Of a DNA stretch of 64,000 nucleotides, positions 1 through 27,000 are shown one piece after another (the first letter of the stretch is position 1; each line of letters starts with the position of its first letter). The stretch comes from Raja brachyura (taxonomy: Eukaryota): assembly GCA_963514005.1 (NCBI GenBank), contig OY740799.1, positions 33,170,001 to 33,234,000 of the forward strand, written 5' to 3'. The notes under the pieces are model-generated. The model saw nothing but the letters and a program-made list of their open reading frames with translations, did no database searches and was not told the origin of the DNA. A program made the position numbers and the translations under genes.

Positions 1-66
1 GAGCATATGCCCATGCTTGTGCTGCGAAGGGTGTCATTGTGAGGAACTGGAGAGGATCAGTGTGCA
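1..66 (+). CDS. Mucin exon (partial): end of C8 domain of D2
   Basis: [21 protein letters not shown], then donor a|GTAAGT at 67, phase 1. Confidence 0.9.
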
Positions 67-3000
67 GTAAGTGATTTTTCATTGCATGTTACATTATAAT
101 TACAGAAATAAAGTGGATAGAAGACTATTAAGATGTGGGAGGTGACTATTCAGTTATTGAGACACAAGAGATTGCAGATGCTGGCAAATTGCTGGCGGAC
201 CTCAGCGGGTCAGACAGCATCTGTGAAGGGAAGGGACAAGAGACATTTTGGGTTGGGACCCATCTTCAGATTGATGAAGTAGGTGGGAGAAAGCTGCAGA
301 ATGGAGGTTGGGGTGGTGCAAAGATACAGTTGGGGGTGGCGGGGGGATGATTAGCAGATGGGTGGAGATAATCAGAGAGTCGTACAGCGTGGCAACTCTT
401 GACGCCCTTTCTTTGGAAACGTTTATCAACTTTACACTTGCAAGCTCCATTGTCCCAGTATCCATTGACTTTTCCGGAAGGAAATTCCAAATGTAACTGA
501 TAGTTAACTTTGTTTGGACTCTATTGCACTGTGGGATAAATACAGCATTACATTTTCTTTAACCAGTTTGTCTTGATTTAATTGATTTAATCACTAGAAT
601 AAGATAATCTTGTAGAAACATGAAATAATTTGTTCAGAGCAGTGTATTAAGAAGTGGACATCATTGAACTTTTCATACATTGGCAGAGAAATTCAAGAGG
701 AATCCAAAGAGATTTTATTAGTATATTAGAATAACTAGGGGGAGAATAGGGCCTTTCAAAGACCAAAAGGGAATCTATATTTGGAGCTGCAGGAGATCAG
801 CGAGGTCCTCAGTGAATATTTCTACTCTGTTTTTACTGTGAAGAAAAAAATGAAGACCAATGAACTCACAAAGGATGTCTTAGGGTTCGACTGCATTACA
901 TTAAAGGAATTGTTGGACATACCTAAAATGTATAAAGGTAGATTAATCACTGGGGTCTGATCAGATGTAATCAAAAACACTGTAGGAAGGTAAAGAAGAA
1001 ATCACAGATTCCCTGGATAAGATGTATGGTTCATCGTTAGGCATGAGTGAAGTGCCCGAAGACATGAAATTTGATTGTATATTTTTGAAGAAGCACCAAG
1101 AAGGTTAATGAGGATTAAAAGCACATAGTTCGCTGAAAGTGATGTTACAGGTGGACAGAGTGATGAAGAAGGCTTTTAGCATGCTAGCCTTCATCAATGA
1201 GGGCAATGAGTAAAGAGTAAAGAAGATGGGGTTTTATGTTACACTTGTGCAAGATTTTGGTGAGGATGCACTTGGAGTATTGTGTTCAGTTCCTGCTAAA
1301 GGGAAGATGCTATTAAGTGGAAAGAGTGAAGAAAATATTTATGAGGATGCTGCCAGGACTTGAGAGACTGAGTTATAGAGAGAGGTTGGGCATGCTAGAA
1401 CTTTATTCCATGGAGACTGAGGGGTGATCTTACAGTGGTATATAAAATCATGAGGGACGTAGATAGGGTGAATGGACACAGTCTTTTTCCCAGAGTTGGG
1501 GAATCAAGAACCAGAGGATTAGGTTTAATGTGAGAGAGGAAAGGTACAATAGGAACTTGAGGGACAACTTTTCCCACACAGAGGGTGTTACTTTAAAGGA
1601 ACATTTATGGAAGTAGTGAGGCAGATACAATAATAACATTTTATGGCATTTGGACTCGCATATGGACAGGACGATTTTGAGGTATATGGGTCAAGGACAG
1701 ACTAATGAGAATAACTACTTTGATGCATCTTGGTCAGCATGGACTAGTTGGTCCTGTTTCTGTGCTCTGTGTCTCTAAGACTCTGGAGCGTCAGGGGCTG
1801 AGGGGGGACCTGATTGAAATTTATAAAATTATGCGATGCATGGACAGTCAGATTATTTTTCCAATGATGGAACTGTCAAGTCATAGAAAGCATAACTTTA
1901 AGATGAGAGGGGGAAAGTTTAAAGGAGATGTTCGGAGCAAGTCTTATACACAGAGTGATAGATTCTTGGAGGGTACTGCCAGGGAGAGTGATGGGAGCAG
2001 ATGTGATTGTGACGTTTAAGAGGCTTTTTGATATACAAATAACCAATAATTGGCATCATGTTTGGCACAGATATTGTGGGCTGAAAGACCTGTCCATGTA
2101 CTGCATTGTTCCATGATATATGTTGTAACTACTAAGAATGCTAAATATGATGTTTGGTGATTTTTTTCTATCATAATGAGATTGCTCTCCAAGGAGAACA
2201 AAATCCAAATAGGGTATTGTTGGAAAAATGCTATTCATTCATTAGAACAATTAACGAGCCGAGTCTTATCTTAGAAATGTAAAACGTGATTTTTTCCCCG
2301 TGGTTTGAAATAAGCATGGTCATCTGCAGTCAGAAAATTATTTCACGATATCTTTGCCAATTGAACGTCTTGAGCAATTAGCCATGCAATTACTAGTGTT
2401 CAATCATATTTGGAGTTAATGGCAAAAATTAAATGGCTTAATGGAATGTTTTTCCTTCTTAGGAGTAAATTGTCCAATAACACAGATTTTTCATCATGAT
2501 GTGAGAGCATGTAACCGTATGTGCAGGTTTCTGTCAAATCCTGATTTCACATGTGAGCTTGAAGATGTTCCAGTTGATGGTTGTGGTTGTCCTGAGGGAA
2601 AGTACATGAATGATGAGAAAGCATGCGTGAGCAGATCAGAATGCCCTTGTTATGTTGATGGTATAAATATACCACCAGGACAAAGTCTTACTTTAAATGG
2701 AATGCAATGGTAAGTGTTTTACATTTTGCTCTGTACATTTTGGATTAAAGTACTTGCAACTATAAAATAAGAAGTATGCTTTTTTTCTTAGTTTATGTCT
2801 CAATGGAGAACTTTCATGCCCTCATGCAACAAATCCACCAATTATACGAGGTAAACAAATTTTAATCTATTTAAACAACTGAAGCACACAATTTAACTTT
2901 GGAATTAAATGAATGCACTTTAGTTGCATTAAAAAATAATTCACTTTTTTTTGTTAGATTGCACGAAACAAAATAAAATATTTTCGAATTGTGTCGCTGC

Positions 3001-6000: not shown

Positions 6001-9000
6001 GGTTTGGTGGAGGATTCCAGTGGAAGATGCATTGCACCATCTCAGTGTCCTTGTGTATTTGGAGGTGAAACCTTTGGGCCTGGAGAAACAATCAAAAGGG
6101 ACTGCAATAAGTGGTGAGCCTCGACAAATGTCAAACAAAATAACAGCCCTTAACAGCATAGAATTGTAGAAAGATATTACTATGTCTTCTCTATTATAGC
6201 ACATGCAAAATTGGCACATGGGAATGTACCAATGATCCATGTCCAAAGACATGCCATGTTTATGGAGATGGACATTACATAACCTTTGATGGAAAGCGAT
6301 ACACTTTTGATGGCAACTGTGAATATATCTTTGTTGAGGTAAGATAGAGAACATCATATTCAATGTGCATTTTTTTTCTTTTTCATTTAGTTGTAAACAT
6401 ATATGATAATACTTAAATTTAAAATCTCTGTATTCTTTCTAAGTTTAGGCAGACATGCAAAAGATTATTGTTAATTGATATAATAATTGTAATCAGTATT
6501 TAAAATATTTCACTGAAGTATTTATTAAAAATTTCTCTAAAGTGATTTGTTCATTTAAAATGGATCGGTCCTAGCAACTACTTTTGACATTTGGTCAGCC
6601 TTTGGTTGTTGTTATTGATGGCTGTTGGAGGAGAGGGAGTAATACATGTGTGCAAATGGAATTGTTCACACATTTGCTTGTTTAATCACTCAAAGAATTT
6701 CACACTTCAAAATTATGACAGATGAGATTCTAAACATGAAGCAGCATATTAGATCGCATGTTTAAAAGTACAAATTGTCTCAGACACAATCAGCAAGAAT
6801 GGTTTTGAGTGTAATCTGAAATCTCTGATATTGCTTCTGAGATATAAATGAGAAGGTAAAAATGAGCAAAATGTATTAATCAGATTAAATGATCTGAGAT
6901 TCTATAGTATGAATGGTTCTTCAGCAAACCTTAAATGCTTTTGAAAGTGTTAACTATCACTTGGTGCTAAGGGTTTCAAGAGCTGTTATTATGACCTTGT
7001 CTTTTTCCTTTCCTTTGTCCTTATATTTTCTTGAGCTCAGAGGATAATGAAAAAATATATAAATCTTGATGAACTATAAATTATAGTGGAATTATTGAGC
7101 TGGCTCTGCCAATCCAGATTATGATTGGTTAAAATTACGCTGCACCAATTTAACCAAGTTATCTTAATTTTAGGATCGATGTCTGCAAAAGATTGGCACA
7201 TTCCAAATACTGACCGAGAGTGTTCCCTGCTGTGAAAATGGAGTGACATGTTCAAGAAACATCAGAATCATATTTGAGGTATATGCCCTTTGATTTATAA
7301 CAATTAGAATGCGTAAGATGGCGTTTTTAAATAAAGCATCCAAATGGATCCTTGCAATGAATTAATTTAGTTTATTCAGCATGTTATAAATCAATATATT
7401 TTCAAATATATTCTTATAGGATAAAGAAATAATTCTGTTGAGTGGAAATAGAGTGAGTGAAATATCCCTTGGCAAATACCAGTGCACGGAAAATTTATAT
7501 ACAATTCACAACGTTGGACTTTACTTAGTCATAACATTTTCCAATGGGATAACTGTGATATGGGACAAAAATACAAGATTTTCAATCACATTGGACCCCA
7601 GATGGAAGGTATGTATGATTGTAAATTAAAATGTTTCCTTAATTTCTGTTTATTGATAGAGAAAACATAATGAAAAAGCTTGTGTGGCATAATTCATATG
7701 AGAGACGTGGATGTGGTGTGAAAAATGTTTAACTAAATGCTCGTAGACAATTGAGCTGTAGATGGAATGGACAACACATAATTTGGGACAAAATTCCCTG
7801 AGCAATGCAGCATTGGATTCAAAATAAATTAGATGAAACGATGGTTTTTCATTTATTATTGGGCTCATTATCAGCTATTCAACTTTAAGAAGCAGCTGAG
7901 CAATAACCTACATTTCTTTGTATAAGGACAATATTAAATAGTACTTAGAAGCATTGCCAGCAGTTTAATAGGAATTGTGAAAAGGGTAGGGAGCTGCATT
8001 GTTTAACAATAGAGAAAAACTGGCACAAAATAACTATGGAAAACGGAGTTGAGCACAGATGTCCACAAAATTTTTAAAGGTGCACTAGAATGGAAAAGAT
8101 GTGAGGGGCAATGGTTATTATGGTAATTCTTCCATTATGTTAAAATTCAGATGCAGCCCAAGGCCTTGGTTGCACAAAATTAGCTTGATAGGTCTATCAC
8201 ATAATTGAGGGAAGCTTGATTAGGGAGTTATTGACACTGTGGTGACACACTAACACTCTATCAGATTTCTTACATGTGGTGGTAGGAGGAAATGAGAAGG
8301 AAGAGAAGGGAAGGGATCAGAATGGTGCTATTATGCATGGTAAGGGAAGGTTGAGACAAGCAGATGAAGGGTTGACAGAGTCCAGTAAATCAGCTGAGAA
8401 TGGATCATTGTGATGGGGAGTGGAGGGGGGGGGGGGGTGGTGTTAGGGTTTTAATGCAGATTAAAGGGTCAGGGTCTTAGTGGAGATTGACATTGGGTAG
8501 TACATTAAATTCGGCAGGTGACTTCGGCATTCGGCATTATATGACTTTCATACAGCTCTGCCAAAATAGCAAAATGGTAGAGAGGGTGTTGCCTTATTGA
8601 TTAAGGAGAATGTCATGGCATTAGTCCAAGATGACATTACTGATAGTTAAAAAAAACAAATAAAAGTAATAATGTTAAATATATATTAAAAGATATTTTG
8701 ATAGGTACATGGATAGGATAGGTTTAGAAGGATATGGGCAAATGCCTTCTAAGTGTAGATGGAGCATGTTGGTCGGTGCGGAGAAGTTGAGCTGAAGAGG
8801 CCTATTTCCACATTGTATGACTCTATAACTCTAATAGAAACCAACGTCCTCCTGTGTGGCTTTGAGGCGAAATTGACATTGGGGTCACAAGACTGGCTAT
8901 TGACAGGAAATGTCCTATCAAATTCTCAATACAGTGAAAAATATCCCAGAAATTATTATCACACTTCCCTCATAGACAAAACTTCTCCATGTGCACAGAT

Positions 9001-12000
9001 TGAATAAAACACCAACAGGGAACTGGAGATTTTTACGCAAATATGTTTTTATGACATCTTTTGTATATAAGCTTTGGATTTGTCAAGTTGGGAATAACCA
9101 ATGTGAATCTAAAAAAACTAAAAATACTGGAAAGTCTTAGCAGGTTAGGCAGCATCTGTGAAAAGTGATGCAGTTCAGGTCAAAGACCCATCCTCAGACC
9201 CATCTTCAGCCTTCGACCTGAAGAATTAACTGTTTATCTTTCCATTAGTATCTCCTGACCTGTTGTATTTTTGGAGGGTTTTGTTTTAATTTCAGATTTC
9301 CAGTATCTTAAGTTTTTTGATTTTCATTTAATGTGAACCTGAATCTCCCAATGCAGTGTTCCAGGATATAACGAGAGGCCAAGGTGAAAACCTTAATTGG
9401 ACAATCCCAACTCAAAATCTTGTCTCTAAGTCAATTGGCAGTGTGGAAAGGCAAAACAGAATCCACATGGGTGGTGCAAAAGGCTTCCTCAAACCTGCCA
9501 AATGGCTACCATTAAACATACGTATACATAAAGTAAAACCTTTATATGAAATGATAAATCACTTCAATGAAAGCAAAAATCCAAGAGGAATTGTTATAAA
9601 ATTACCCCTTTGATGCCATCTATTTTCAAGAGTCTGCAAGTACTGTATATATTTAAAAACAACAGTTCACATACAGATTTTCAATTAGCATTTATGAGGT
9701 TGACATTTCATTCAAAGGATGGCTTGATGCTTTGAGGAGTTAAATAGTAACAGTAAAAGGTGTACAATGTATGTATATGTGGTAAAGATCATGAGGATTC
9801 AAAGTCAAGAGTTTGTTGAAAATAAGGAAGATGAAATATAATTGGATCAGATAATAGTCTTGAATTATTCTTCATTTTAAATTATACATTTAGCAGTTTA
9901 ATCTTCTTTTATATACTTGCGCCAACTTTTATCATGAAATGTGTGACAATGGTGAAGGCCTTCAACCAATAGATTAGTCAATCAATCCAGAACTGTCAAA
10001 AATCCCCATATTGTATAATTTAGCAGTTTATTGAAAATACTTTGAATTTTCAACCATACTAATCCATAGGTAATGAAGAGTGAAATAACTTGCTTTATTT
10101 ATTGCCATTCACAAACTAAATTATAACCTCTTTATAGCCAATGTCTTTGGTTCTGGTTGTGATGTAAAACCCTCTTGATGCTTCACTCTCTCTATGATTG
10201 TGTTTATTTTTGGAGTAGACAAAAGCTGTGCTTCTGAAGTGCGGAACACTGAAAATTATATAAAAGATCAAAGACTAGGTCAAAAATTAACTAATTAAAT
10301 AATTGTAATGATTTAATTCATTAATTATGTTTGTATGGTGCCATACTGGATCTCAAGAGGAGACTATGTGGTTTATTTCAATGAAAGATTGATAATTCTG
10401 ACATTTGTATTGGGTTAACTTGGAAAAAGTAGGAAATTTTAATTGTAAATGTAGAATAGTAACCATTATTTTGCTTTTTTTACATACATAAGAATAAAGT
10501 TTGTGGCCTTTGTGGAAATTTCAATGAAAATATTGAAGACGACTTAACAACGAAGGGGAACTCCTTGGTGACCAGCTTTATGACCTTTGGGAACAGTTGG
10601 AAGTCCATGCAGTCATGCTCTGACACAGTTAATGAAATATACCCATGTGATAACAATCCATATTGTTTAGCATGGGCTCAGAAGAGGTGCAGCATAATTA
10701 CTGGCCCAGTCTTTCAAGCTTGTCATAAAGTGGTAAGATGCCAGTTAAATTTGAAATTTAAATAGAATCCATAATGCAATCATGATTTCTGACATTGTGG
10801 CTCTTTATCAGGTTAACCCAATCGCATTTTATGATGCTTGTGTCCAAGAAGCTTGTGTTTGTGATATGGAGGGAAAATACCAGGGTTTGTGTACTGCTAT
10901 TGCTGTGTACGCAGAGGCTTGCAACAAAGCTGATGTTTGCATTCGCTGGAGAACCCCTGAATTCTGCCGTAAGTCTAAACTTCTGTATTCCTTGTAGAGA
11001 ACAATTAAGGTATAAGGGCTCATCAACATATTTTTATAGATAGCAGAACACATTGATCCACAGAGTACCATAATTATTCAGATTGTTGTTCCAGATTCCC
11101 GCATCTGCAGACTCTTGTGTTCTCAAGGTCCAGATTGATGCTTGGTGCTGTTTAAAATCTGTGTCATTTTGTAATTGCAATAAATAAACCATATTTCCTT
11201 CTTCAATTCCCTGCCTCTTTTAACACAAGATCCTCCATCTTCTACTTGGTTCAGTAAACAGTGCACAATTAATTATCGAGAGTATTCTCCAAACAGAATC
11301 AATGTTTTAAGAAGATTGGCCTTTATTGCCTTCCATCACAGTGAAGAATGTGGGGAATCTGCTGTGTTGGTTGTTTATGTTAACTTTTATGTAGTTGTGT
11401 GTCTTGTTGCCTTTTTAAAAATATGGCTGTATGGTAATTTGAATTTCATTGCACCTTAATTAGTACATGTGACAATAAACTGACCTTGATACCTTGATTC
11501 TGTTTGGAGGATACTCTCGGGTATTTATTTGTGCACTGTTACTGAACCACTTTTTAGCTCACGATGGATAACATATCAAAACTGATTTTGATCCTTGCAA
11601 TGAAAGGCAGGTCATTTTGATCCTTTCAGTGAAAGGCAGGTCACTATCACTGTACACTTTTAATCCTTGATTCATCAAGAAAATACATTCAGAACCTCAC
11701 GCAGCCGAATATTCCAACACCTGCTGATCTGCAACTAATCCACAATATTTGTTTCATTAAATCTCATCTGTTTGCTTATTAATGGGATTTGTGGCTATTA
11801 ATTTGAAGATGATGTTCTGCCAACATTCAGTCTCTATCCTCCAAGTTTGGCATACACTGAAGAATAAATGCACGTATCATTCTATCTATCAATGTTACTG
11901 TTTTATCTAAAAAAGATACTTTGCAGGTTGATTGTATTGGTGCTCATGACAATTCTCCTTTACCTACTACATAAGTCAACTCATTTATCAACATGTATAC

Positions 12001-15000
12001 TCTTTGGAATAGAAGAATAAAGTTGTCCGAGTATCTGCCATGTTAAGGACAGATGTCTGAGAGTCCAACACTCCAGTTCACAGACCAATATCTATAAAAT
12101 AAATATACAGTGACTATTTGCCATGCAATATTGTGCTCATTTTGGGCAATGAATAACCAAGCCAAAATCACAATTTGATTGTTTCTTTTATTCTCCAGCT
12201 GTATTCTGTGACTATTATAACAGTCTTGGTGGCTGCAGTTGGCATTATCAGCCATGTGGAACAACAACAACAAAAACATGCACAAGGAAAAAGTTCTCTG
12301 CAAACCTAGAAGGTGCAGTTTAGAATGTATTCAAATATGTCACAATCATTTTACAATTTGTTTTAAACAATACTTTTAGGTTAGACTAAGATTCAGTTCT
12401 TAAAAATAAAAATCATAATAATCAATTCATTATGCAATTCATTACACATTATACTCAGTTAAAGTATCTATATATTTTGATTAATCTTCAAAAAAAATCA
12501 TGCGTATCCTGTCATTCGTTGGAAATTTGTGCATATTTAGAATAGAGATACATTTTATTGGTGTCAAGGTCTGCTGCATTTACAACATTCCTGTTTATCT
12601 TGATGGTCATTTTTACTTCTCACTACTTTAGGTTGCTATGCCAAGTGCCCAGATAATGCTCCTTACTTGGATGAAAATATTATGAAATGTGTTACACTAC
12701 CACAGTGCACATGTTATAATGATGGGAGAATACTACAACCTGGTGAAACAACAATAAATGATTGTGAAGAATGGTAAAGTAGTCATATCAGTAAATGTAT
12801 TTATCACTGTTCTAATATTGAAAGAAAAAAACAAGATAAATGCCAAAAAATTGGATTTTACAAATATTCCCTTAATAGTGACATTCGCTATTTTAATAAT
12901 TGAAATATAAAATGCAGTCTAGGATAATTTCACACCTGAACAAAGGCCAAAATAATTGTTTTCAAATTACTTCCCACCCACCACCCTCCCTCACCTACTT
13001 CAGTGACTTTAATCTACAGTTTGCAGTTATATTCATTTTCTGTTCCTTCTGCAAAAAGTTCTTCATTTTCTTTATTCTCTCTGGCTAACAATAATCAGTG
13101 ACTATTCTTTCTGAGAACCCATCCCTTAATAATTATCCTTCATTGTTACACTATATTGTAATATTTGTTGTGAATTATGAACATTATGTGGGCTATTGCT
13201 CCTTTAAAGGTTAACTTCTCCATGAGTTGCAACAATAAAGTGCGGGTGGTCTGTGATTACCCATGAATAAACCAACAAAATGTATTAAAACTTCTTATGT
13301 TTCATTCTGCTATTAGTAAAGAATCTATTCCCTTGAACAAACATTGCCTCCATTACATTTTTAAATCCTCCTGTGGACTATGGTTTTTGGTGGTGATTTC
13401 AGAGCTAACAGAGTTTTTACCTTTCCAATTCCATCTTTCCAGAGAGGTTGAACCATTGCAACACAATATGTCTTTAGACTAGTTTGTAGTTCTTTAGTTT
13501 GTCTTATTTGTAACATCTTTCTTTTTGTTGACAGTACATGCCTTAATGGAATCACTACTTGCCAAAGTAAGTAGTAACTTTCAGCATTCACCTGTTAAAA
13601 TAATGCATATTTGTAATTAATTATTGTTTTTCGATAAAGGAGAATGTTTGCTTATTTGCAGTGCAATATTAATAGTATCAGCAGTTGTAGTTATATCTTC
13701 AGTTTAAATATTTCCAAAACACTACTTATCAAATGCGAGACTTGAATAATTAGCACATCTGTAGAAGTTGGTGGGAGTTGTTGAAGACATGCCAAACTTG
13801 CTAAGCCTTCTGAGGAAGTAGAGGCATTGGTGTGCTCTCATAGCCTTTGCTTTGATACGGCTAGTTCAGGAGAAGTTGCTGGTGATATTTACTGCTAGGA
13901 ACTTGAAGCTTTCAACCATCTCTATTTTGGCACTGTCAATGTATGTGTAGCACTTTGCCTGACTTCTGAAGTTGATCGCTATCTCCTTTGTCTTGTTGAC
14001 ATTGAGAGAAAGGTTATTAACGCGACACCTGGTTACAAGTTTCTCAATGTCCTTCCTGTACTCCATCTCCCAATTATTTTGGTATCTGTGCCACTACGGT
14101 GGTGTCACCCATGAATTTGTAAATTTAGTTAAATTTGTACGAGGCTGCACAATTGTGGTGAATAAGGAGCAATGAAGGGAGCTGAGAACACATTCTTGCG
14201 GAGCACCCATATTGGGGATTATTGTAGAGGATGATTTGTCACCTACAACTTGTACTGAAGTCATAGCAGAGCTAAGAAACACTCATGCATGCAGGCAAAA
14301 TGTACCCAACATAGATAACCCCTGCATTATAGAGTGATTGCATTTGCTGTAATCGTGATTTTCTGCAACACATCTCCTTTTGCTCTTGAATCCCATGTTA
14401 TAAGTGGAGAATGTTTTTCTCTCATTTTAAACCAATTTATCAGTGATGACAAGAGAATTCTTATTTCTCTTGTCATCAGTGATGACAAGAGAATTCCACC
14501 ATTCTTATTTAACATTTGAGACCAACATTAGACCCAGATGAAACAGCAAGTTTCATCAATTTTTAATCACTCAATATTGTACGGCAATAAGATTTGAACA
14601 TGATTTTGTTGATTGGGTTAGGAGTCCCAGCTGAGCCGCCCACCTTTGCCATGCTCCCTCTAGTCCTATGATATGTGAACTCATGACTCAGACCGTAGCA
14701 CTGCCGGGGATTAATTTGTGAGTCCTACTATCTGATGCACAAGGCTCGCTGAACATGAAAGGGTTTACTAAGTGGGTTTATTTGGGAAAGGAATGGAATT
14801 CAAGGGTTGGGATTTATGGGAGAAAAGTGACGTAGAAGGAATTAATGGGGCAACACAGTGAAGTCTGCTCACCTCCCTGTGACCACGTGGCTTTCCTCTG
14901 TGTCCTCCTACATCTCAAAGACGGCGGGTTTGATGGTTCATCGGCCTCTGTAAGTTGCTCCTAATGTGTAGGGAACAAATGAAAAAGTGGGATAACATAG

Positions 15001-18000
15001 AAGTAATGTTAATGGATAATCGATGGTCAGCATGGACTCGGTGAGCCGAAATGCCAGTTTCCATGCTGTATCTTTAAACTAAACTACAGTTAAACCTCAG
15101 TGGCTGGGAGAAGTGGAGTAAACACTGAGGGATTACTTTAAGGAGATGGCCAGGGCTCCCCACATTGCACTCACAGGTGAAGTGCGCAGCAACACTGCAC
15201 TCTGAGACATCTGTTTATGTGTTTTTGGTCTGAAGAAGACATGGCTGTCACTGCCAACCCCTTTGACACAGTGACAAAACATAAAATTTGTTGTTTTGTT
15301 TGCATTTCTATATATATATTTATTTGTTTATTTTTCATTTTGGTAAGTGCAAATTTTAATCTGTATCTCAAATGTTTTGGTAGTTGACTACGAAATGGAT
15401 AAGGGCAAATTTCTATTACTTAAATGACAGTAGCATGGTTGTTGCCTTGAGGAAATATCAGAAATAGATAAGGACTGAAGTTTTATTATGTACGTGTTTA
15501 TAACAACAGGAATAAAGACCACAACTGTTCCATCTACAACACTGTTGACCACAACTCCACTTACATCAACTTCAACAATTTCTACACCAATCACTAGCCC
15601 AGGTAAGGTGATACTAGTTACAGGTTATGACATGTAATATTTACAATTTGGTAAGAACAGATTTCAAAAGATCAGAGGTGAAACTGGACATTGGTATGTC
15701 TGTACTTTTGGACATAATAATTATAAATGGGATTCATAAGCAGGTTATCACTTTCCAACACATTTCATGATGTTGGCGATCAGTAACTTTAATCTGCATA
15801 CTCCACCTGGGTATCAAAGAGATGATAAACATTGTGTAAAAAGGGCAAAAGAGAGTCTCTCCTGGCTCCACAAGGCAAATGTATGATTCAGTCAAATAGA
15901 TCTCATCTCAGTTCACTTTCACAGCTCCTGCCTCATAGGAACAAGCCCAAAGCAACTGTAGATGTAAGAGGCATACACCTCTTTGATATCAGCATATCAA
16001 AATGATGAAAGGGATAGACAGAGTTGACGTGGATAAGCTTTTCCCATTGAGGGTAGGAAAGATTCAAACAAGAGGGCATGACATGAGAATTAAGGGACAG
16101 AAGTTTAGGGGTAACATGAGGGGGAACTTCTTTACTCAGAGAGTGGTGGCTGTGTGGAATCACCTTCCTGCAGAAGTGGTGGAGGCAGGATCGATTTTAA
16201 CATTTAAAAGTAAAGTGGGTAGGTATATGGACGGGAAGGGAATGGAGGGGTATGGTCTGAGAGCAGGTAGATGGGACTAGGGGAAAATAAATGGTCGGCA
16301 CGGACTGGAAGGGCCGAGAAGGCCTGTTTCCGTGCTGTAATTGTTATATGGTTATATAGTTATATGGTTAAGAGGCAATTTGTATGGATAAAGTCTGAGC
16401 TTTGGCTTCTGTTTTAAACTCGCTTGTGAAAAGCACATAAGGTCAGGGTTTCATGTTGCCATCTTGCCGAAATGTTGATAAGGATAATGAATGTATATCA
16501 GGAACATCCTCACATAGAACAGTACAGCACAATAACAGGCCTTTTGGATCACACAATGCTCAGTTCAATTAATCTCCTCTGCCTGCAACTAATCTCTGCC
16601 TGCACAATTCTCCATTTTGTGGCTGGGCGACATTTAGAGAGGATGTGTGTATGGTGGGTGTTGAGTGCCCGGCCCACTGCTGAGGGTGGTGATGGAGGCA
16701 GATACAATTGTGGTGTTTAAGAGACTTTTGGATAGACACCTGGATATGCAGGAAATGGAGGGTATGGATTATGTACTGGCAGATAAGGATTGGTTTCGGC
16801 ATCATGTTCGCCACAGACATAGTGGGTTGATGGACCCGTTCCTGTGCTGTATTGTTCTATGTTCTTTTTGAGTAAAATTGACAACTGAATATAATGTCTG
16901 TTTGATTATATTGAGCAATTCTAAAACTGTTTTTTTTTTAAAAGGGGGATAGTAAGATACATTTTTCAGAAAGCTTATTCAGAGAAATGTAAATGTTAGT
17001 TTTAAATATTCATCAGTTTTAACTTCAGTTTTTGTGTTGTTACTATTTTAGTGGGGACCTACATTTCTGAGTGGCAGAAATCAGCCAATGCCCAGCCCCA
17101 TCCACACTAGTCCCACCTCTACATTTGCCAATGTCCTTCTAAACCTATCCAATCTATGTACCTATCCAAATGTTTCTTAATATATTTTTTTAATTTTTAC
17201 TTTAATTTGGGTTTTTTTAAACTGCCAGTAACATCATCTCAGACTAATGCCATGGCATTCTCCTTAATCAATAAACCTACCATTTTGCTATTTTGGGAGA
17301 ACTGCATGATTCTATGACTGAATGTTGGATCTCAATGAAAATATGAACTAAAACAGATGTGATATCAAACTCTGCTAGAGAGTTAACGTGTCATCACAGC
17401 GTCAATAAATATTTAATTCTAACCTCCCTCAATATTGTGATAGACTTATCAAGCTGACGTGAAGGTCAAATCTACAATACCCAATTTCTTGCAGCCAAGG
17501 CCTTGGGTTACATCTGAATATTGATATAATGGAAGGATGATCATAATAACCATTGCCCCTTCACATCTTTTCAATTCTAGTACACCTTTTAATTAAGAAT
17601 CTTGTAGACATCTCTGCTCAACTCTGTTATCCACAGTTATTTCCTGACAGTTTCCCTCTGTTAAATAATGTTGATATTGTTAAATATTGCAGCTCCCTAC
17701 CCTTTTACAAATTCCTCCTAAACTGATAGCAACGCTTCTAAGTACTATTTAATATTGTCCTTGTACAAAGAAATGTACCATAAATGTTGCAGACAGACCT
17801 GTTAGAAATATATGAAAATAAAGCAGCAGACACAGCGTGGACAGTCAGAACCAGGGCGGAAATAGCAGAGCATAGCCTTAACGTGAGAGGGGCATTGAAA
17901 TGAACATGGAGGTGGATTTGAGTAACTATCAAAGAACTGTAAAGGGATAATGCAGTTACCACTCTTGCTCACAAAATAATGTTCTATTGAAAGTATGGTT

Positions 18001-21000
18001 TCCTTGTGATGCAGATAAATCACCCAGCACATTATATTGCTGAATGGAGTATGGTTATAATTTGCTGAAATTATGTTATGCAATCATTTATCCGGTTAGT
18101 TTTCTACTGCCTCAGTTGTGCCATTCATCGTTGAATGGTCATGAATGCTTTTACTTTCTTAAGAAACAATAACAGTACCAACCATAACTGAGTTTACCAC
18201 CAGTCACACAACTGGTGGGTGATGCCTTCATTCAATATTAATTCATGGATATTTTAAAGCAACTATTCTTTTAAGCACTGCAAAGTTGAACTTTATTGGC
18301 TTGCCACAATCGTTTTAATTTCAGCGCAGTAGTGTTCTATCCTTCTCCAGAATCTTAAGGGTTCACTCGAGGTTGGTGATATGGCACAGAACAGATTAAA
18401 TATATCGCCTTCATTAACATTCGGAATTATTTCTGTATCAAGCACCAGAAATTTGGGTTGCCATACAGCCATACGAATAAAAAAGGAACACAACACACGA
18501 TAGAATTTAACATAGACATCCCCACACAGCAGAATCAACGTTTCCCACTGTGAGGGAAGGCAATAAAGTTCAGCCATCTTCCTCTTTGGTTACCCGTGGT
18601 CGGGGGCGCCAATGTTCAGGCCCTCGCCGGGATGATCGGAACTCCGACGTTGGAACGGAGAACTCTCTCAGCGGCTTGGAGTTCCGAACCGGCCACCTAC
18701 CGGAGACCAGAGCTCCCGATGTCCACAGGCCGTGCTTGGCGGAGATTCACACTGGCGTCCTCGCCAAAGGGACACCAGGACTCCAACACTAAGAATACCT
18801 CCAAAACATGCTTTTAAACGGACTAAAAATAACAAAAAGATGAAAAAAAAAGACAGAATGCAAACAGAGGCTGCCTTCAAATGGCCCCCCCCTGTGGTAA
18901 TGTAAATGTAATCATACAACTGAAATCTGAGATACCATATTGGAGAGAGATTAAAGACCAAATGTGATATACAAAACCAGCTGATTATCTGAAAGCTAAA
19001 TTTACTCTTGGGTCCTAAAGCCATATGCGTAGTTGGAAAATGAGGTACTGTAACTTACACTGAGTACTGAACTTTATTGGAAATGTGTTGGAGATACAAA
19101 GTGGAAACGTAGGGAACATTTAAATGACTGACATATAAAATCTCATAAATAACATATACTACAGTAAATCTGTTTTGGTCTCCACTCTGCTGTGGATCCT
19201 CCCTTTCCTTTTCTTGTATGCTCACTGCCTATCCTGATTATTTTTAAGATTTTATTTGTTTCTTTGCAGTAACACTTTTTCCAGACATACCCCTTGTTCT
19301 TTCTTCTCCTTTCCTTCCATCTTTCAGTCACTATTTGGGTCACTCAATCTCTCCTGGTCTCCAGCCCATCACATCATCCCCTATTTCTCTGCACTGTAAA
19401 TTTTGTTGCATTCTAAATTTTCCAGTACTTATAAAATAGAATCAGTCTCAAATGTTAATTCTTAACAGATGCTGCTTGACCTACCAAGTACTCCCAGTCA
19501 TTTCTGCTTTCATTTTTCTTATGTCTGAAATCTGCTTGAGCGGTATAAGAATTGAGTTGACTTTGTGATTTGAATTTGTTTGTTATTTTCCAGAAGAAAC
19601 ATCAACTGTTACATCAACCAGCATTCCTTCCACAACAGGTAGGTGTTGGCTTTTTCAATATATATTTATTTTGCAACCTCAACTGATCACAATGAAAATC
19701 CATTTGTTTTCTTCTCTATCATCGTCATAAACATCAACGTGCACGGTGCCTTACAATGCTATGTACGACAGTGATCATAACTTCTACTGAAGTGTGGATG
19801 GCCGTTGGCTCGCTTGGAGCTAATCTGCCTTTTGACAGGTCTTGTTTTTGGTCCTGCAGTGGGTTCACTGCCCCCTCCTCACCTGGCAAACTAGGTGGGG
19901 GAGACGGTTTAGTCACCGACTATCCGACCATGGAGCAGGTAGCACGGGATTACATGGTACCCGTGGCGGGTGGTAATCCCCCCTATCTTCTCTACCTTTT
20001 TGATATATTAGACCCTGTTCCCTGTTCCCCATTTTTACTGTCATAAGTAAAATGTTCGGTCACTCACAATGGCAGCTACTTTTATCATCATGCGGAAATT
20101 TGAACTCCCTTCTTTATAAGAATATGATAGGTAACTTCTTTATTTGGGCATGCGAGGAAACTGTTTGGCCCATTGTGTCCTTTTCAACTTCCAACAGCAC
20201 AATGTCATGTCCCCTGCTTATTTCCCTGTATTTCTACAACATATTCTCTTCCACATCCACTCTCCTTTGATTCTTTTGGTATTGGTCTATACAAAGGAAT
20301 AATTTACAAGAGCCAATTAATCTACCAGCATGTCTCTGGGTGACAGGAGGAACTCAAGGAAGTACAGGGAGCCAATATGAGCTCCATACAAACAGCACCT
20401 AATATCAGGATTGAACTTGGATCTCTCAAGCTTTCAGGCAAAGGCAAGGCACAGCCTTCCACAGCTTGTTGAGAGTGGTCTTCTTTTCATTATAATCTCT
20501 TTCCTCCTTTAACTCTTGATTCTGTTTTATGAATTGACAGCAAACGTGTTCCTTTATCATATATTATCCTGGAGCAGCTACCTTTTTGCCATTTCCCTCT
20601 TGCCCACTAATTAAACTCTTCTGCATATATGTTATACCTTTTCACCATATACAGTACGTAGCATGTTTCAAGGTGATATGGTGAGGCAACGCAACTACTC
20701 CAATAATGTTCTTCAATAGCACGCTGAGACCAACCCATCAAAGTGGAAAGAATATCCGGCTGTTAAAATCATGCAATAGTTAGTGCACAGCTGCAGTCAG
20801 CTGCCTGATAAGTGACATCTCACGTTTGTGCTTTATGCTTTTTCTCTATTGTTCTGTTCTGCACTGGCAATGAATGTTTCCCTACTTGAAGTTGTATCTT
20901 AATTCAGATCAATCAACAGTTCCCCAAACATATTGTTATTATTCCCATTTTACTGTTCCCATTTTCATTTAAACTGTAATTTGTAAGATTCATTTTGATG

Positions 21001-24000
21001 CACAACCATGTTTCTCAAATCTTGTTTTTTATATTTATGTTTATATTTTCCACTATGTAGTGTTTTTTTACAAGTTTGCCTTATGTTTTCTTTCTTTACA
21101 TTACAGTGCCATACTGTTTGGGTGTATGGTCTCCTTGGTCTAATAATGATACACCAACACCGTCATCTCCAAATGATTATGAATTGTTGATACCATATGG
21201 CACTCAATTGTGCCCATCTTCTTCTGATAAAATTACCACCATTCAGTGCCAATTTGCCAAACATCCTGAATGGCCACTAAGTGTATCGCCAGATGTTGTG
21301 ACCTGCAATAAAGAGATAGGATTGATGTGCACATTCTCTGGATCTCCTTCTGGCCACTTTTGTAATGACTACAGAATTAGAGTTTGCTGCGAGCCAACTG
21401 AGACGACAACTGTCCCCACGACTACAACTGAGTCTACCACCAGTCCCACGACTGGTGAGTGATACCTTCTCCAGTACTTGTTAACAGTCGTTTTAAAGGA
21501 AGGACAACTGTGTCCAAAGTATGTCCAGCTTGTGCTGGAATTGAACCAAATACAAATATTACTGCTCAATGTTGCGATGATTATAAATTTGCAGTGGCTT
21601 TTGTTGATGTTATTCCACAACTTCTCTTTAATCAATATATGCTGATTTTGTTACTACACTTAAAAATGTGCTTTTCTTCGTTGAATATAAAGGACATGTA
21701 TGCATTTGTTTACAGAAGAAACAACAACAACAACAGCTACGACCACCACAGAATCTACCACCAGTCCTACAACTGGTAAGTGATATCTTATCTCAATGTG
21801 CACTCATAGTTTTTTTTTATCACAGCTGAGTTCATACACACACGTTCCCATCCTTGCTTCAAGTTTCGCAATTTCATGATCCCATTTTAGAGTCTGTGGG
21901 TTCAGTCTTGATGGTCCTCTGATGCTGGATAGAGGTAGTGCAGCACTGACAATACTGTGCTGTTCAGCTTGAGATTTTGAGCTGGGTTTGTGAGTGTGCT
22001 GTTGTGACTGCGGTATATTTTGTGGCCAATAGCAAAGAACAGAAACATCTCTCAACTACCATGAATAATAACGATGATTACAACAAAATTTCTCAGGAAA
22101 TATTTTTAAGTTCTATAGTTTATCGGATGTAGATATGAATAAGTAGTTTCTGGTGTTCCCTATATTTCAGCTGTGACCATATTTTAATACAATTTCTTGC
22201 TGCAAGTCCTTTGCAAGATAGGAAGTATTGAAAGGAGTTTATCTCGACTTTACACAATCTCTTTTGAAATAGTCCAATTACCACCTGCATTTGTCGGTCA
22301 TTCAAAATCTACGATTCAACATGGATGATTTAATTGTCCATGAATTTGTTTCTCTTTCGAAGAAACATCTACAACAACCAGCACAACTGAGTCCACAACC
22401 ACTTCCACAACTGGTGGGTGGTGATATTTTCATTTGTAAATCTTTTAAACACAAGCTCACCTATACATATACATACTATATCACATAATTTAAAACAAAT
22501 GTAATGCCTTGGTAGACAAAAATGCTGGAGAAACTCAGCAGGTGCAGCAACATCTATGCAGCGAAGGATATAGGCAACGTTTCGGGCCGAAACCCTTCTT
22601 CAGACCCTTTCGGCCCGAAGCGTTGCCTATTTCCTTCACTCCATAGATGCTGCTGCACCCGCTGAGTTTCACCAACATTTTTGTCTACCTTTGATTTTCC
22701 AGCATCTACAGTTCCTTCGTAAATAAATGTAATGCCTTTATTATTTTCCAGAAGAAACCACTCCCACGGTGACACCAAGCACCACCACCACCTACACAAC
22801 AGGTGAGTGATCACCTCTGTCAGTAGCTTATTACCAGCCGTAACGTTCAGTCATTCAATTTCAACTTCTGCTTGCCTTCAGTTTAATCATTCTTCAACTT
22901 GCATGTAATGCTTTTATTTGCAGAAAAAACAACAATAACAACGCCAGGGCCACCCACAACCACGTCTACCACCAGCCCCACAACTGGTGAGTAATGCATT
23001 TTATCAATCATTTTAACACAAATATGCTCACAGTACCACTTGCAGGTTGTGACAATGATGATCACTCTTGCCTTGTGCAACACAATTTTACCTCAGCAGC
23101 TCATGGGATGTTATCGAATTTCAAAGTCTTGAGATTCAAACTAGAATTGTGTTTTAATGCAATGCAAAGGAACGACAGTAATGCCCAAAGTATGTGCTGG
23201 AGTTGAAACACATACAAATATTACTGCTGAATGTAGTATGGATTGTATATTTGCAGTGACTATGTTGAAATATTATTCCACAACTTCTTTTAATTTGTGC
23301 AATATATGTTCATTTTGTTACTCCTCTCTCAAATGTGTAATTCTTCAAGTTGAATGTAAAGGTCGTGTATGTATGTGTTTACAGAAAGAACTACACCAAC
23401 AGTGACAACAACAACAGAATCTACCACCAGTCCCACAACTGGTGAGTGATAACTACTCTCAATGTAAACCCATGGGTTTTTATATCACAGCTAAGCTCAT
23501 AAACATTATTTTCAGTTGCACTACTTTCCCTTCCTTTCTTCAATTTCACTTCATCCATAACAGATGAGTGATCGCCTCTGTCAGTATATACTCACTGGCT
23601 GTTGGATTTGGTTGTTCAATTAAAACTTCTACTCATCTTCAGTGAAAGTCTAATAATTTGACCTTTCCACTACAATTTCCAATAACAAGCATTGGTCTAA
23701 ATATTGAATGAAGGGTCCTGAAATTTATTTCTGCAGACAATTATTAGAATCCTCTTCTTTAAATGATGGCAACTATGATGATCAGCCAGCCTGTGTGAGT
23801 CTCAATAAAGCATCTCTCATGGGTAATTAAGCTATGTAATTCATAATAAAAGTGCAATGGTAGGTTTTCTGGTGATTGCCATAAATAAGTGGGTACACCA
23901 CACTGAAATGCATTGAAGTCTTTGAGGGAATGAAAACTGAGCAAAAATCGTGCAGGACTATACTATTTTGTTGCTGCTGCATCTCTACTCGTGATGGTTC

Positions 24001-27000
24001 TGCAGAGAAGAAAATAATTTTTCCATGTCTAAATTGTTTTCACATTTCTCAATAATTTCTCAGCATTACACTTGAAAGTTCCAAGTGATCAACAGTATGT
24101 TAAGTGCAGTTACCACGCTTGCTCACAAAATAATGTTCTATTGAAAGTATGGTTTCCTTGTGATGCAGATAAATCACCCAGCACATTATATTGCTGAATG
24201 GAGTATGGTTATCATTTTGAAGCCATTTGCTGAAATTATGTTACACAATCATTTATCCGGCTAATTTTCTACTTCCTCAGTTGTGCCATTCATCGTTGAA
24301 TGGTCATGAATGCTTTTACTTTCTTAAGAAACAATAACAGTATCAACCATAACTGAGTTTACCACCAGTCAGATAACTGGTGGGTGATGCCTTCATTCAA
24401 TATTAATTCATGGATATTTTAAAGCAACTATCCTTTTAAGCACTGCAAGCTTGAACTTTATTGGCTTGCCACAATCGTTTTAATTTCAGCGCAGTAGAGT
24501 TCTATCCTTCTCCAGAATCTTAAGGGTTCACTCGAGGTTGGTGATATGGCACAGAACAGATCAAATATATCTCCTTCATCAACATTCGGAATTATTTCTG
24601 TATCAAGCACTGGAAATTTGGGTTGCCATACAGCCATACGAATAAAAAAGGAACACAACACACGATAGAATTTAACATAGACATCCCCACACAGCAGAAT
24701 CAACGTTTCCCACTGTGAGGGAAGGCAATAAAGTTCAGCCATCTTCCTCTTTGTTTACCCGTGGTCGGGGGCCCCAATGTTCAGGCCCTCGCCGGGATGA
24801 TCGGAACTCCGACGTCGGAATGGAGAACTCTCTCAGCGACTTGGAGTTCCGAACCGGCCACCTACTGGAGACCAGGGCTCCCGATGTCCACAGGCCGTGC
24901 TTGGCGGAGATTCACACTGGCGTCCTCGCCAAAGGGACCACCAGGACTCCGCGATGTTGTTCAGCATTGCCTGCGGCTAGAAGCTCCGCAACCATAGTTC
25001 TACGATGTTAAAACAGTAGGCCCAATGCTCCGGAGCTTCATCAAACGATCCCCAGTAAGGAACAGACAGCTCCACTCAGAGGTGTTAATTCAGTGCTGCG
25101 TCGCTGTTGAAGCTCTGGTCGGTCTCCGGAAGGAACGGCCGCGCCAATCCAGTTTGTCTGCCGCGAGGAGTGGGCGAAGATGAGAATAGTCGCATCCTCG
25201 CCAGGAAGAGACTGAGAAAAGGTTCCCCACCCCCCTACCCTGACCCACTACCCCACATAAAAAGACTAAGAATACCTCCAAAACATACTTTTAAACAGAC
25301 TAAAAATAACAAAAAGATGAAAAAAAAAGACAGAATGCAAACAGAGGCTGCCTTCAAATGGCGCCCCCCTGTGGTAATGTAAATGTAATCATACAACTGA
25401 AATCTGAGATACCATATTGGAGAGAGATTAAAGACCAAATGTGATATACAAACCAGCTGATTATCTGAAAGCTAAATTTACTCTTGGGTCCTAAAGCCAT
25501 ATGCGTAGTTGGAAAATGAGGTACTGTAACTTACACTGAGTACTGAACTTTATTGGAAATGTGTTGGAGATACAAAGTGGAAACGTAGGGAACATTTAAA
25601 TGACTGACATATAAAATCTCATAAATAACATATACTACAGTAAATCTGTTTTGGTCTCCACTCTGCTGTGGATCCTCCCTTTCCTTTTCTTGTATGCTCA
25701 CTGCCTATCCTGATTATTTTTAAGATTTTATTTGTTTCTTTGCAGTAACACTTTTTCCAGACATACCCCTTGTTCTTTCTTCTCCTTTCCTTCCATCTTT
25801 CAGTCACTATTTGGGTCACTCAATCTCACCTGGTCTCCAGCCCATCACATCATCCCCTATTTCTCTGCACTGTAAATTTTGTTGCATTCTAAATTTTCCA
25901 GTACTTATAAAATAGAATCAGTCTCAAATGTTAATTCTTAACAGATGCTGCTTGACCTACCAAGTACTCCCAGTCATTTGTGCTTTCATTTTTCTTATGT
26001 CTGAAATCTGCTTGAGCGGTATAAGAATTGAGTTGACTTTGTGATTTGAATTTGTTTGTTATTTTCCAGAAGAAACATCAACTGTTACATCAACCAGCAT
26101 TCCTTCCACAACAGGTAGGTGTTGGCTTTTTCAATATATATTTATTTTGCAACCTCAACTGATCACAATGAAAATCCATTTGTTTTCTTCTCTATCATCG
26201 TCATAAACATCAACGTGCACGGTGCCTTACAATGCTATGTACGACAGTGATCATAACTTCTACTGAAGTGTGGATGGCCGTTGGCTCGCTTGGAGCTAAT
26301 CTGCCTTTTGACAGGTCTTGTTTTTGGTCCTGCAGTGGGTTCACTGCCCCCTCCTCACCTGGCAAACTAGGTGGGGGAGACGGTTTAGTCACCGACTATC
26401 CGACCATGGAGCAGGTAGCACGGGATTACATGGTACCCGTGGCGGGTGGTAATCCCCCCTATCTTCTCTACCTTTTTGATATATTAGACCCTGTTCCCTG
26501 TTCCCCATTTTTACTGTCATAAGTAAAATGTTCGGTCACTCACAATGGCAGCTACTTTTATCATCATGCGGAAATTTGAACTCCCTTCTTTATAAGAATA
26601 TGATAGGTAACTTCTTTATTTGGGCATGCGAGGAAACTGTTTGGCCCATTGTGTCCTTTTCAACTTCCAACAGCACAATGTCATGTCCCCTGCTTATTTC
26701 CCTGTATTTCTACAACATATTCTCTTCCACATCCACTCTCCTTTGATTCTTTTGGTATTGGTCTATACAAAGGAATAATTTACAAGAGCCAATTAATCTA
26801 CCAGCATGTCTCTGGGTGACAGGAGGAACTCAAGGAAGTACAGGGAGCCAATATGAGCTCCATACAAACAGCACCTAATATCAGGATTGAACTTGGATCT
26901 CTCAAGCTTTCAGGCAAAGGCAAGGCACAGCCTTCCACAGCTTGTTGAGAGTGGTCTTCTTTTCATTATAATCTCTTTCCTCCTTTAACTCTTGATTCTG

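Follow-up and report, generated by a model that had tools for sequence, protein, structure and literature searches.

We describe a mucin gene of the skate Raja brachyura, found in a 64,000-nucleotide window (contig OY740799.1 of assembly GCA_963514005.1, positions 33,170,001 to 33,234,000 of the forward strand; coordinates below are counted from the first letter of the window). From sequence comparison we consider it quite probable that the window holds the middle of a gene for a gel-forming mucin of the MUC19 lineage, and that its CysD domains were inherited from an ancestral jawed-vertebrate MUC19, with later loss. It is the one recognisable gene in the window and lies on the plus strand, with 71 exons and 2317 stop-free codons; exon borders were placed by hand at AG/GT, and the gene model derives from genomic DNA alone. 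The model opens in C8-2 at the window edge, completes D2, continues across D'D3 and passes into phase-1 mini-exons rich in Thr, which is the gel-forming mucin layout of VWD-C8-TIL assemblies followed by regions with abundant proline, threonine and serine (PTS). The initial annotation had placed a MUC19-type N-terminus joined to CysD domains at 7174..21454; this feature is real and its extent was understated, as the gene reaches from the exon at 3-66 onward and the tandem array that holds its seven CysD copies extends to position 64000.

Lineage of the D3 assembly

By its D3, the window gene is MUC19-type. Homology searches gave 242 proteins, 235 of which were kept, and their D3s were grouped as MUC19-type or MUC2/5 (the latter covering MUC2, MUC5AC and MUC5B) at a 52% identity cut, which reproduces the FastTree split. 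The best match of a window D3 exon, at 93%, is a Rhinoraja longicauda model (P0001) that is 89% identical to the window over 574 N-terminal residues. Identity of the window D3 is 53-58% to 23 mammalian MUC19 sequences and just 40-49% to 127 MUC2/5 sequences. In D3 trees, the window falls in a clade with mammalian, Latimeria and Erpetoichthys (reedfish) MUC19 by FastTree (92 rows, support 99), in the same MUC19 clade by IQ-TREE (55 rows, 100/99), and again in the MUC19 clade under a mixture model (25 rows, 100/100). An approximately unbiased (AU) test rejects the chondrichthyan rows and MUC2/5 as a clade (p-AU 0.005). FCGBP, the outgroup of the D3 tree, is distant, and a long-branch warning applies.

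This grouping of D3 with MUC19 and not with MUC2/MUC5 bears out what the initial annotation had read from D3 motifs, all four of which are present on in-frame GT-AG exons (7174-7278, 10493-10732, 10812-10968 and 12632-12773). Written as regular expressions, the motifs occur in 79, 72, 80 and 67 of 81 MUC19-type D3s (window included) and in none of the 127 MUC2/5 D3s. Three of the four are found in the window as tested patterns, and all four regions align with the MUC19 form; one pattern demands K/R after EG, and the window has K/R there. The positions of MUC2 Cys1088 and Cys1090 are Tyr and Gly in the C8-3 of the window, in register against MUC2/MUC5AC chains. Both cysteines are present in 0 of 79 MUC19-type D3s versus 141 of 142 MUC2/5 D3s, and the equivalent of Cys1130 is retained in the window and in 71 of 80 MUC19-type D3s. 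Human MUC19 is likewise described as having neither Cys1088 nor Cys1090, and MUC6 as keeping Cys1088 and Cys1130 (PMC6739602, sections concerned). Two extra cysteines specific to MUC19-type D3 lie on the exons at 7174-7278 and 10493-10732, beside the Cys1088/1090 loss. The window gene shares D3 sequence and motifs, the loss of Cys1088/1090 and its tree place with the MUC19, porcine submaxillary mucin and spiggin family, and differs from it by its CysD repeats.

CysD exons and their cassette array

The exon at 21107..21454 (plus strand, 348 bp, phase 1-1), which the initial annotation had called a CysD, was confirmed as one by profile search: it matches Pfam Mucin2_WxxW at E 1.2e-14 (55.2 bits, cut-off 22.4), and carries the WxxW motif, eight cysteines and a PTS tail. 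Against PDB, the CysDs of MUC5B, MUC5AC and MUC2 are the only significant matches (five of seven rows, E 2e-10 to 3e-5); the CysD of MUC2 has ten cysteines (PMC3195396), not eight. Copies 2 to 7 follow on the plus strand at 27583-27930, 34068-34415, 40548-40895, 47026-47373, 53504-53851 and 59982-60329. With these seven CysD exons the window shows the MUC2/MUC5 trait of CysD interspersed in PTS and does not show the mammalian MUC19 trait of CysD absence. On the phylogenetic evidence, the gene is a MUC19 by descent, not by the mammalian domain list.

The CysD exons are carried by a plus-strand tandem array of cassettes of 6476-6488 bp (18785..64000), six of them whole and a seventh cut by the window end, which are 99.6-99.7% identical by self-BLAST. 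The period is about 6478 bp, and the array continues past position 64000. Each cassette encodes about 242 aa. It contributes a single CysD exon of 348 bp together with at most seven PTS mini-exons, 45-63 bp in length; all of these are phase 1-1, and the reading frame stays open in every copy. A CysD recurs every 242-243 residues, with 148 residues at 55% Thr in between. At the 5' edge of the array lies a diverged partial cassette (17948..18784, plus strand; 95.5% identical to the units) that does not have about 310 bp present in all whole units (compared with 24101-25262). A possible 51-bp PTS mini-exon of uncertain inclusion at 18164..18214 (plus strand) has a weak AAG acceptor and no counterpart in P0001, and recurs in each cassette. 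The PTS mini-exons do not arise by chance: when T-rich AG..GT segments were scanned for, unit 1 gave six in the coding phase, none in the other two phases and none antisense, and the upstream 15.4 kb gave none. Multi-exon PTS regions have been described for Muc13 and for chicken MUC2, which likewise has PTS over many exons, repeated cassettes and interspersed CysDs (PMC3549977, in part). Chicken MUC2 belongs to the MUC2 lineage and has 69-aa repeats, whereas the window repeat is a 6.5-kb intron-containing genomic unit with its own CysD. The initial annotation had also taken a Ser/Thr region in many small exons as established for mammalian MUC19; this premise is contested, an uninterrupted central exon being cited for the longest human isoform (PMC13345508, in part).

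Compared over about 5.5 kb, units 1 and 2 show 14-19 differences from the rest, unit 3 shows 9-10 from units 4-7, and units 4-7 differ among themselves at 0-4 sites. Unequal crossing-over likely produced the array and made its units homogeneous, a process that this edge gradient in divergence would fit. Exons account for 11% of the unit and for 4 of the 41 substitutions among cassettes, and the ratio of nonsynonymous to synonymous change (dN/dS) is therefore uninformative. The donor of a 45-bp mini-exon changes from GTAGGT in units 1-3 to GTAGCT in units 4-7 (39035-58513), which might weaken splicing. There is some chance, which we regard as minor, that the array, though real, owes its copy number or near-identity in part to an assembly artefact, a circumstance compatible with descent of CysD from an ancestral MUC19. 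The few differences among units 4-7 would suit an artefact; the 9-19 sites at which units 1-3 differ from the others, the gradient from the edge and shared variants speak against it, as do the near-identical CysD copies within genes of relatives.

Ancestry of CysD within MUC19

The initial annotation had suggested that this gene may preserve a CysD-bearing ancestral MUC19, wording that proves too narrow: CysD is the usual architecture of shark and ray MUC19. It was found in 31 of 60 chondrichthyan MUC19-type models (filters off, isoform pairs included), in 24 of the 25 extending as far as D4 (among them two isoform pairs), and in all five chondrichthyan MUC19 paralogue groups seen in the trees. 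These counts come from our own hidden Markov model (HMM) run unfiltered, a first HMM pass having missed five of the following six long models. Pfam scans of whole proteins missed CysD in all six (P0085, P0065, P0070, P0071, P0058 and P0068), in each of which the unfiltered HMM finds one; database Pfam lists consequently undercount CysD. Full-length chondrichthyan models read D1-D2-D'D3-(PTS/CysD)n-D4-VWC-knot, and P0065 and P0068, the closest relatives of full length, each show four VWD domains. By analogy with these relatives, the whole window protein would be D1-D2-D'D3-(PTS-CysD)n-D4-VWC-cystine knot, the gene ending beyond the window. P0261, a shark MUC19-type model, has 11 CysDs and D4 and presents the window's array design at full length. 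The Rhinoraja longicauda model P0001, misleadingly named mucin-6-like, has repeated identical CysDs and similar mini-exon-like PTS blocks; it differs from the window in its PTS blocks and in its CysD, which is only 59% identical where D3 is 91% identical, the copies within each gene being identical or nearly so.

At least five MUC19 paralogue groups of sharks and rays are distinguished in the D3 tree. Several MUC19-type models per species lie on records of equal size (for instance five in Rhincodon and five in Pristis), and the locus tags of two Scyliorhinus torazame models are consecutive, which suggests, indirectly, that the paralogues form a tandem cluster; spiggin shows a comparable tandem expansion in sticklebacks (PMC4989455, in part). 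Many chondrichthyan entries named mucin-2-like, mucin-5AC-like or mucin-6-like are MUC19-type by D3. In six paralogues (P0048, P0049, P0050, P0053, P0054 and P0063) the CysDs are of two types: those of the array are homogenised, and a terminal one, roughly 100 residues ahead of D4, is conserved. In paralogues with four or five CysDs, the last CysD is 78-84% identical between orthologues versus 49-77% for the first. On these identities the terminal CysD is a separate, slower type, and array CysDs diverge fast between species.

CysD also occurs before D4 in ray-finned-type MUC19. The reedfish MUC19-like protein P0085 has one (48.7 bits on our HMM), for which the nearest Atlas clusters are WxxW at 0.89, a lead only; P0246 likewise has one, its D3 being 70% identical to that of reedfish and sister to it in the tree. 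In a CysD tree, 37 MUC19-lineage and 43 MUC2/5 domains split at 99/97 (99/98 with P0246 added), and in a D4 tree 18 and 23 domains split at 100/99. That D4 splits as CysD does argues against a chimera with a MUC2/5 tail. The spacing from the first cysteine to WxxW is three residues in 54 of 56 MUC19-type CysDs, reedfish included, versus 1 of 288 MUC2/5 CysDs, and the distance from the last CysD to D4 is 84-109 residues in 16 of 24 chondrichthyan models; in reedfish it is 101. The relatives of the window gene share the layout D1-D2-D'D3-(PTS/CysD)n-D4-CK and the CysD family match with MUC2, MUC5AC and MUC5B; they differ in that MUC19-lineage CysD and D4 form separate tree groups, the window CysD having its own cysteine number and spacing. 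Of the two origins that the initial annotation had offered, inheritance from an ancestral MUC19 with CysD is favoured by the five chondrichthyan groups, by the two ray-finned-type records and by CysDs that are not nested among those of MUC2/5; recent shuffling finds no support.

Several points weigh against an ancestral CysD. None of 23 mammalian MUC19 models has one, most of these being cut short, with 3 reaching the cystine knot, and the Latimeria model ends 67 residues after D3. Bony-fish support consists of two gene models, reedfish P0085 and P0246. The CysD tree is unrooted, spans about 100 columns and has MUC2/5 rows from bony vertebrates only, so that a root between sharks and bony fish is possible. 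The AU test did not reject a grouping of the reedfish and P0246 CysDs with ray-finned MUC2 CysDs (p 0.089), and reedfish CysD identities have medians of 42% to MUC19-type and 38.5% to MUC2/5 (best 50.6% and 49.3%). The spacing character is without established polarity, and a second indel character is also present in 17 of 288 MUC2/5 CysDs. The sequence sets are without true MUC6, chondrichthyan MUC2/MUC5, otogelin, VWF, amphibian MUC19/FIM-B.1 and invertebrate CysD, and one D3 tree joins sarcopterygian MUC19 with sharks and not with ray-fins (96/87), contrary to the species tree. A search with the gar MUC2 D3 showed no chondrichthyan MUC2/5 or MUC6 in the best 120 of 2145 matches; one row named mucin-6 carries CysD and was treated as MUC5-like.

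In a representative search, 16 of 150 rows were examined: three are shark/skate-like with CysD, one ray-finned-like with CysD, one amphibian MUC5-like, five have a MUC19-type D3 (or part of one) and D4 with no CysD or WxxW between, and six are D4 fragments without CysD. In the tree, which took in four of the five CysD-less MUC19-type proteins with D4, these four sit beside the reedfish pair. Several fish-type records have thus kept D4 and show no CysD. The full-length relatives of the window gene have D4 and spiggin B has four VWD domains, whereas mammalian MUC19 is without D4; mammals likely lost both CysD and D4. An amphibian MUC5-like model, P0243, has six tandem D4 assemblies.

It is unlikely that the original MUC19 had no CysD and acquired it on two occasions, through phase-1 exon shuffling or gene conversion from MUC2/5, one at the base of cartilaginous fishes and one in early ray-finned fishes. 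The unrooted CysD tree, with reedfish between the shark and MUC2/5 groups, the AU result of p 0.089, and the listing of MUC6 and mammalian MUC19 without CysD (PMC11207715, in part) would accord with two gains. Exon phase was rejected as evidence for shuffling: the CysD exon is indeed phase 1-1, and phase-1 symmetry says nothing here because every exon after D3 is phase 1-1. Against two gains stand the spacing common to shark and reedfish CysDs, which 1 of 288 MUC2/5 CysDs shows, their shared position before D4, the same split in the D4 tree, and the dating of CysD to Bilateria, with PTS in deuterostomes (PMC4948705, sections concerned). Less probable still is the view that the genes of sharks and rays represent a separate paralogue, either a sister of MUC19 or one allied to MUC6, and are not MUC19 orthologues. 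A comparison set without MUC6 and without synteny, the mixed database names (mucin-2-like, -6-like and -19-like) and the departure from the species tree within the clade in one D3 tree leave it some room, but a long, fully supported stem unites the chondrichthyan genes with mammalian MUC19, the loss of Cys1088/1090 is common to them whereas MUC6 retains Cys1088, and three Muc19 paralogues had already been counted in Callorhinchus (PMC4948705, sections concerned). Recent shuffling of CysD into the window skate gene alone is scarcely credible and already largely refuted, for despite the 59% CysD identity to Rhinoraja beside 91% in D3, the closest CysDs are those of genes in the same D3 subgroup (Rhinoraja, Hypanus, Leucoraja) and CysD is present in 24 of 25 chondrichthyan models reaching D4.

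Exon structure, predicted assembly and significance

Upstream of the array, all exons lie on the plus strand. The end of C8-2 of D2 is at 3..66 (95% identical to P0001 residues 609-629, with a GT donor, continuing past the 5' edge of the window), and TIL2 with the start of E2 is at 2463..2709 (Pfam TIL, E 2e-6). Three GT-AG, in-frame exons matching P0001 (2792-2850, 2958-3043 and 5965-6113) encode the end of D2 and D' (TIL' and E'), with Pfam TIL on 5965-6111 at E 9e-7. The end of E' and VWD3 occupy 6200-6338, 7174-7278, 7420-7608 and 10493-10732; Pfam VWD falls on the first and last of these; the four exons include the CGLCG motif and the two extra MUC19-type cysteines. A Pfam Toxin_21 match on 6200-6338 (E 0.023, below cut-off) was rejected and taken as chance from cysteine content. 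C8-3 lies at 10812..10968 (Pfam C8, E 1e-13), and TIL3 and E3, with the retained Cys1130 equivalent, at 12199-12312, 12632-12773 and 13535-13566. Relative to P0001 and the other MUC19-type D3s displayed, the TIL3 exon at 12199-12312 is shorter by 12 bp (4 residues), with the frame intact. The first Thr/Ser/Pro exon (15510..15602, phase 1-1) has near-identical text after D3 in P0001. Introns at about 760-2100, 4050-4750, 7909-8268 and 17368-17777 contain, by eye, decayed retroelement-like fragments, among them an inverted pair at 75-81% identity. With four relatives as tblastn queries, neither D4 nor the cystine knot was found within the 64-kb window, only the exons of the mucin gene were matched, and no flanking gene was recognised there. 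SLC2A13/LRRK2 and CNTN1 are the expected neighbours of a MUC19 locus.

By analogy with MUC2, secreted chains would form dimers via the cystine knot and polymers via D3 in the Golgi. The Cys1088/1090 pair is absent as in human MUC19, and the D3 inter-chain bond would be formed by the retained Cys1130 equivalent, the likely partner because Cys1088 is gone; the two extra MUC19-specific cysteines may re-pair remaining cysteines. In MUC2, the first CysD lies about 40 residues after D3 and clamps D1/D2 of neighbouring beads, which is required for filaments (PMC7599080, in part). The first CysD of the window gene follows D3 by 50-67 residues and could act as such a clamp, since this distance is near that of MUC2. 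CysD pairs non-covalently, and the resulting dimers have been proposed to determine pore size (PMC3195396, in part). The array CysDs would be evenly spaced sticky points, one per about 242 residues between O-glycosylated stretches, predicted to cross-link the mucus gel non-covalently.

The gene models are already publicly available with the Pfam domain listed, and the finding refines mucin evolution without adding a new kind of system. In the sections concerned, PMC4948705 assigns CysD to Muc2/Muc5, reports D4 in some spiggins besides the Callorhinchus paralogues, and makes no mention of CysD in Muc19; PMC11207715 lists CYS domains for MUC2/5AC/5B only, and the accessible parts of the spiggin papers report no CysD. 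The structure of seabream muc19 is called 'very similar' to mucins with WxxW domains in part of PMC11035888, which may already have drawn a teleost Muc19 with WxxW. No paper stating CysD in MUC19 was found in the open-access literature searched, subscription papers lying outside the search.

Reviews take the presence of CysD to mark MUC2/MUC5 and a missing CysD to mark MUC19 (PMC4948705, PMC11207715; sections concerned). A MUC19-lineage mucin with a CysD cassette array is typical of cartilaginous fishes and probably ancestral. If CysD and D4 are ancestral in MUC19, mammalian MUC19 would be a reduced form, and the common ancestor of these mucins would have had the full layout. We tentatively extend this to an ancestral MUC19 that may have been a full MUC2/5-like mucin with its own eight-cysteine CysD subtype and D4, which sharks and rays could have expanded into a cluster of five or more genes, mislabelled mucin-2/5/6-like and making up maybe much of their surface gel. 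In this extended picture, the gel would be tuned by copying intron-containing CysD+PTS cassettes, with a fast-diverging CysD and a conserved terminal one, and polymerised via a rewired D3 interface that uses different cysteines. In shark skin proteomics the only mucins named are mucin-5B and mucin-2-like entries (PMC10707392, in part), and the identification of many shark and ray mucin-2/5AC/6-like entries as MUC19 paralogues affects the interpretation of shark mucus proteomes. The gene further provides a natural test of CysD-assisted assembly with a D3 without Cys1088, and of the effect of CysD spacing on gel properties.

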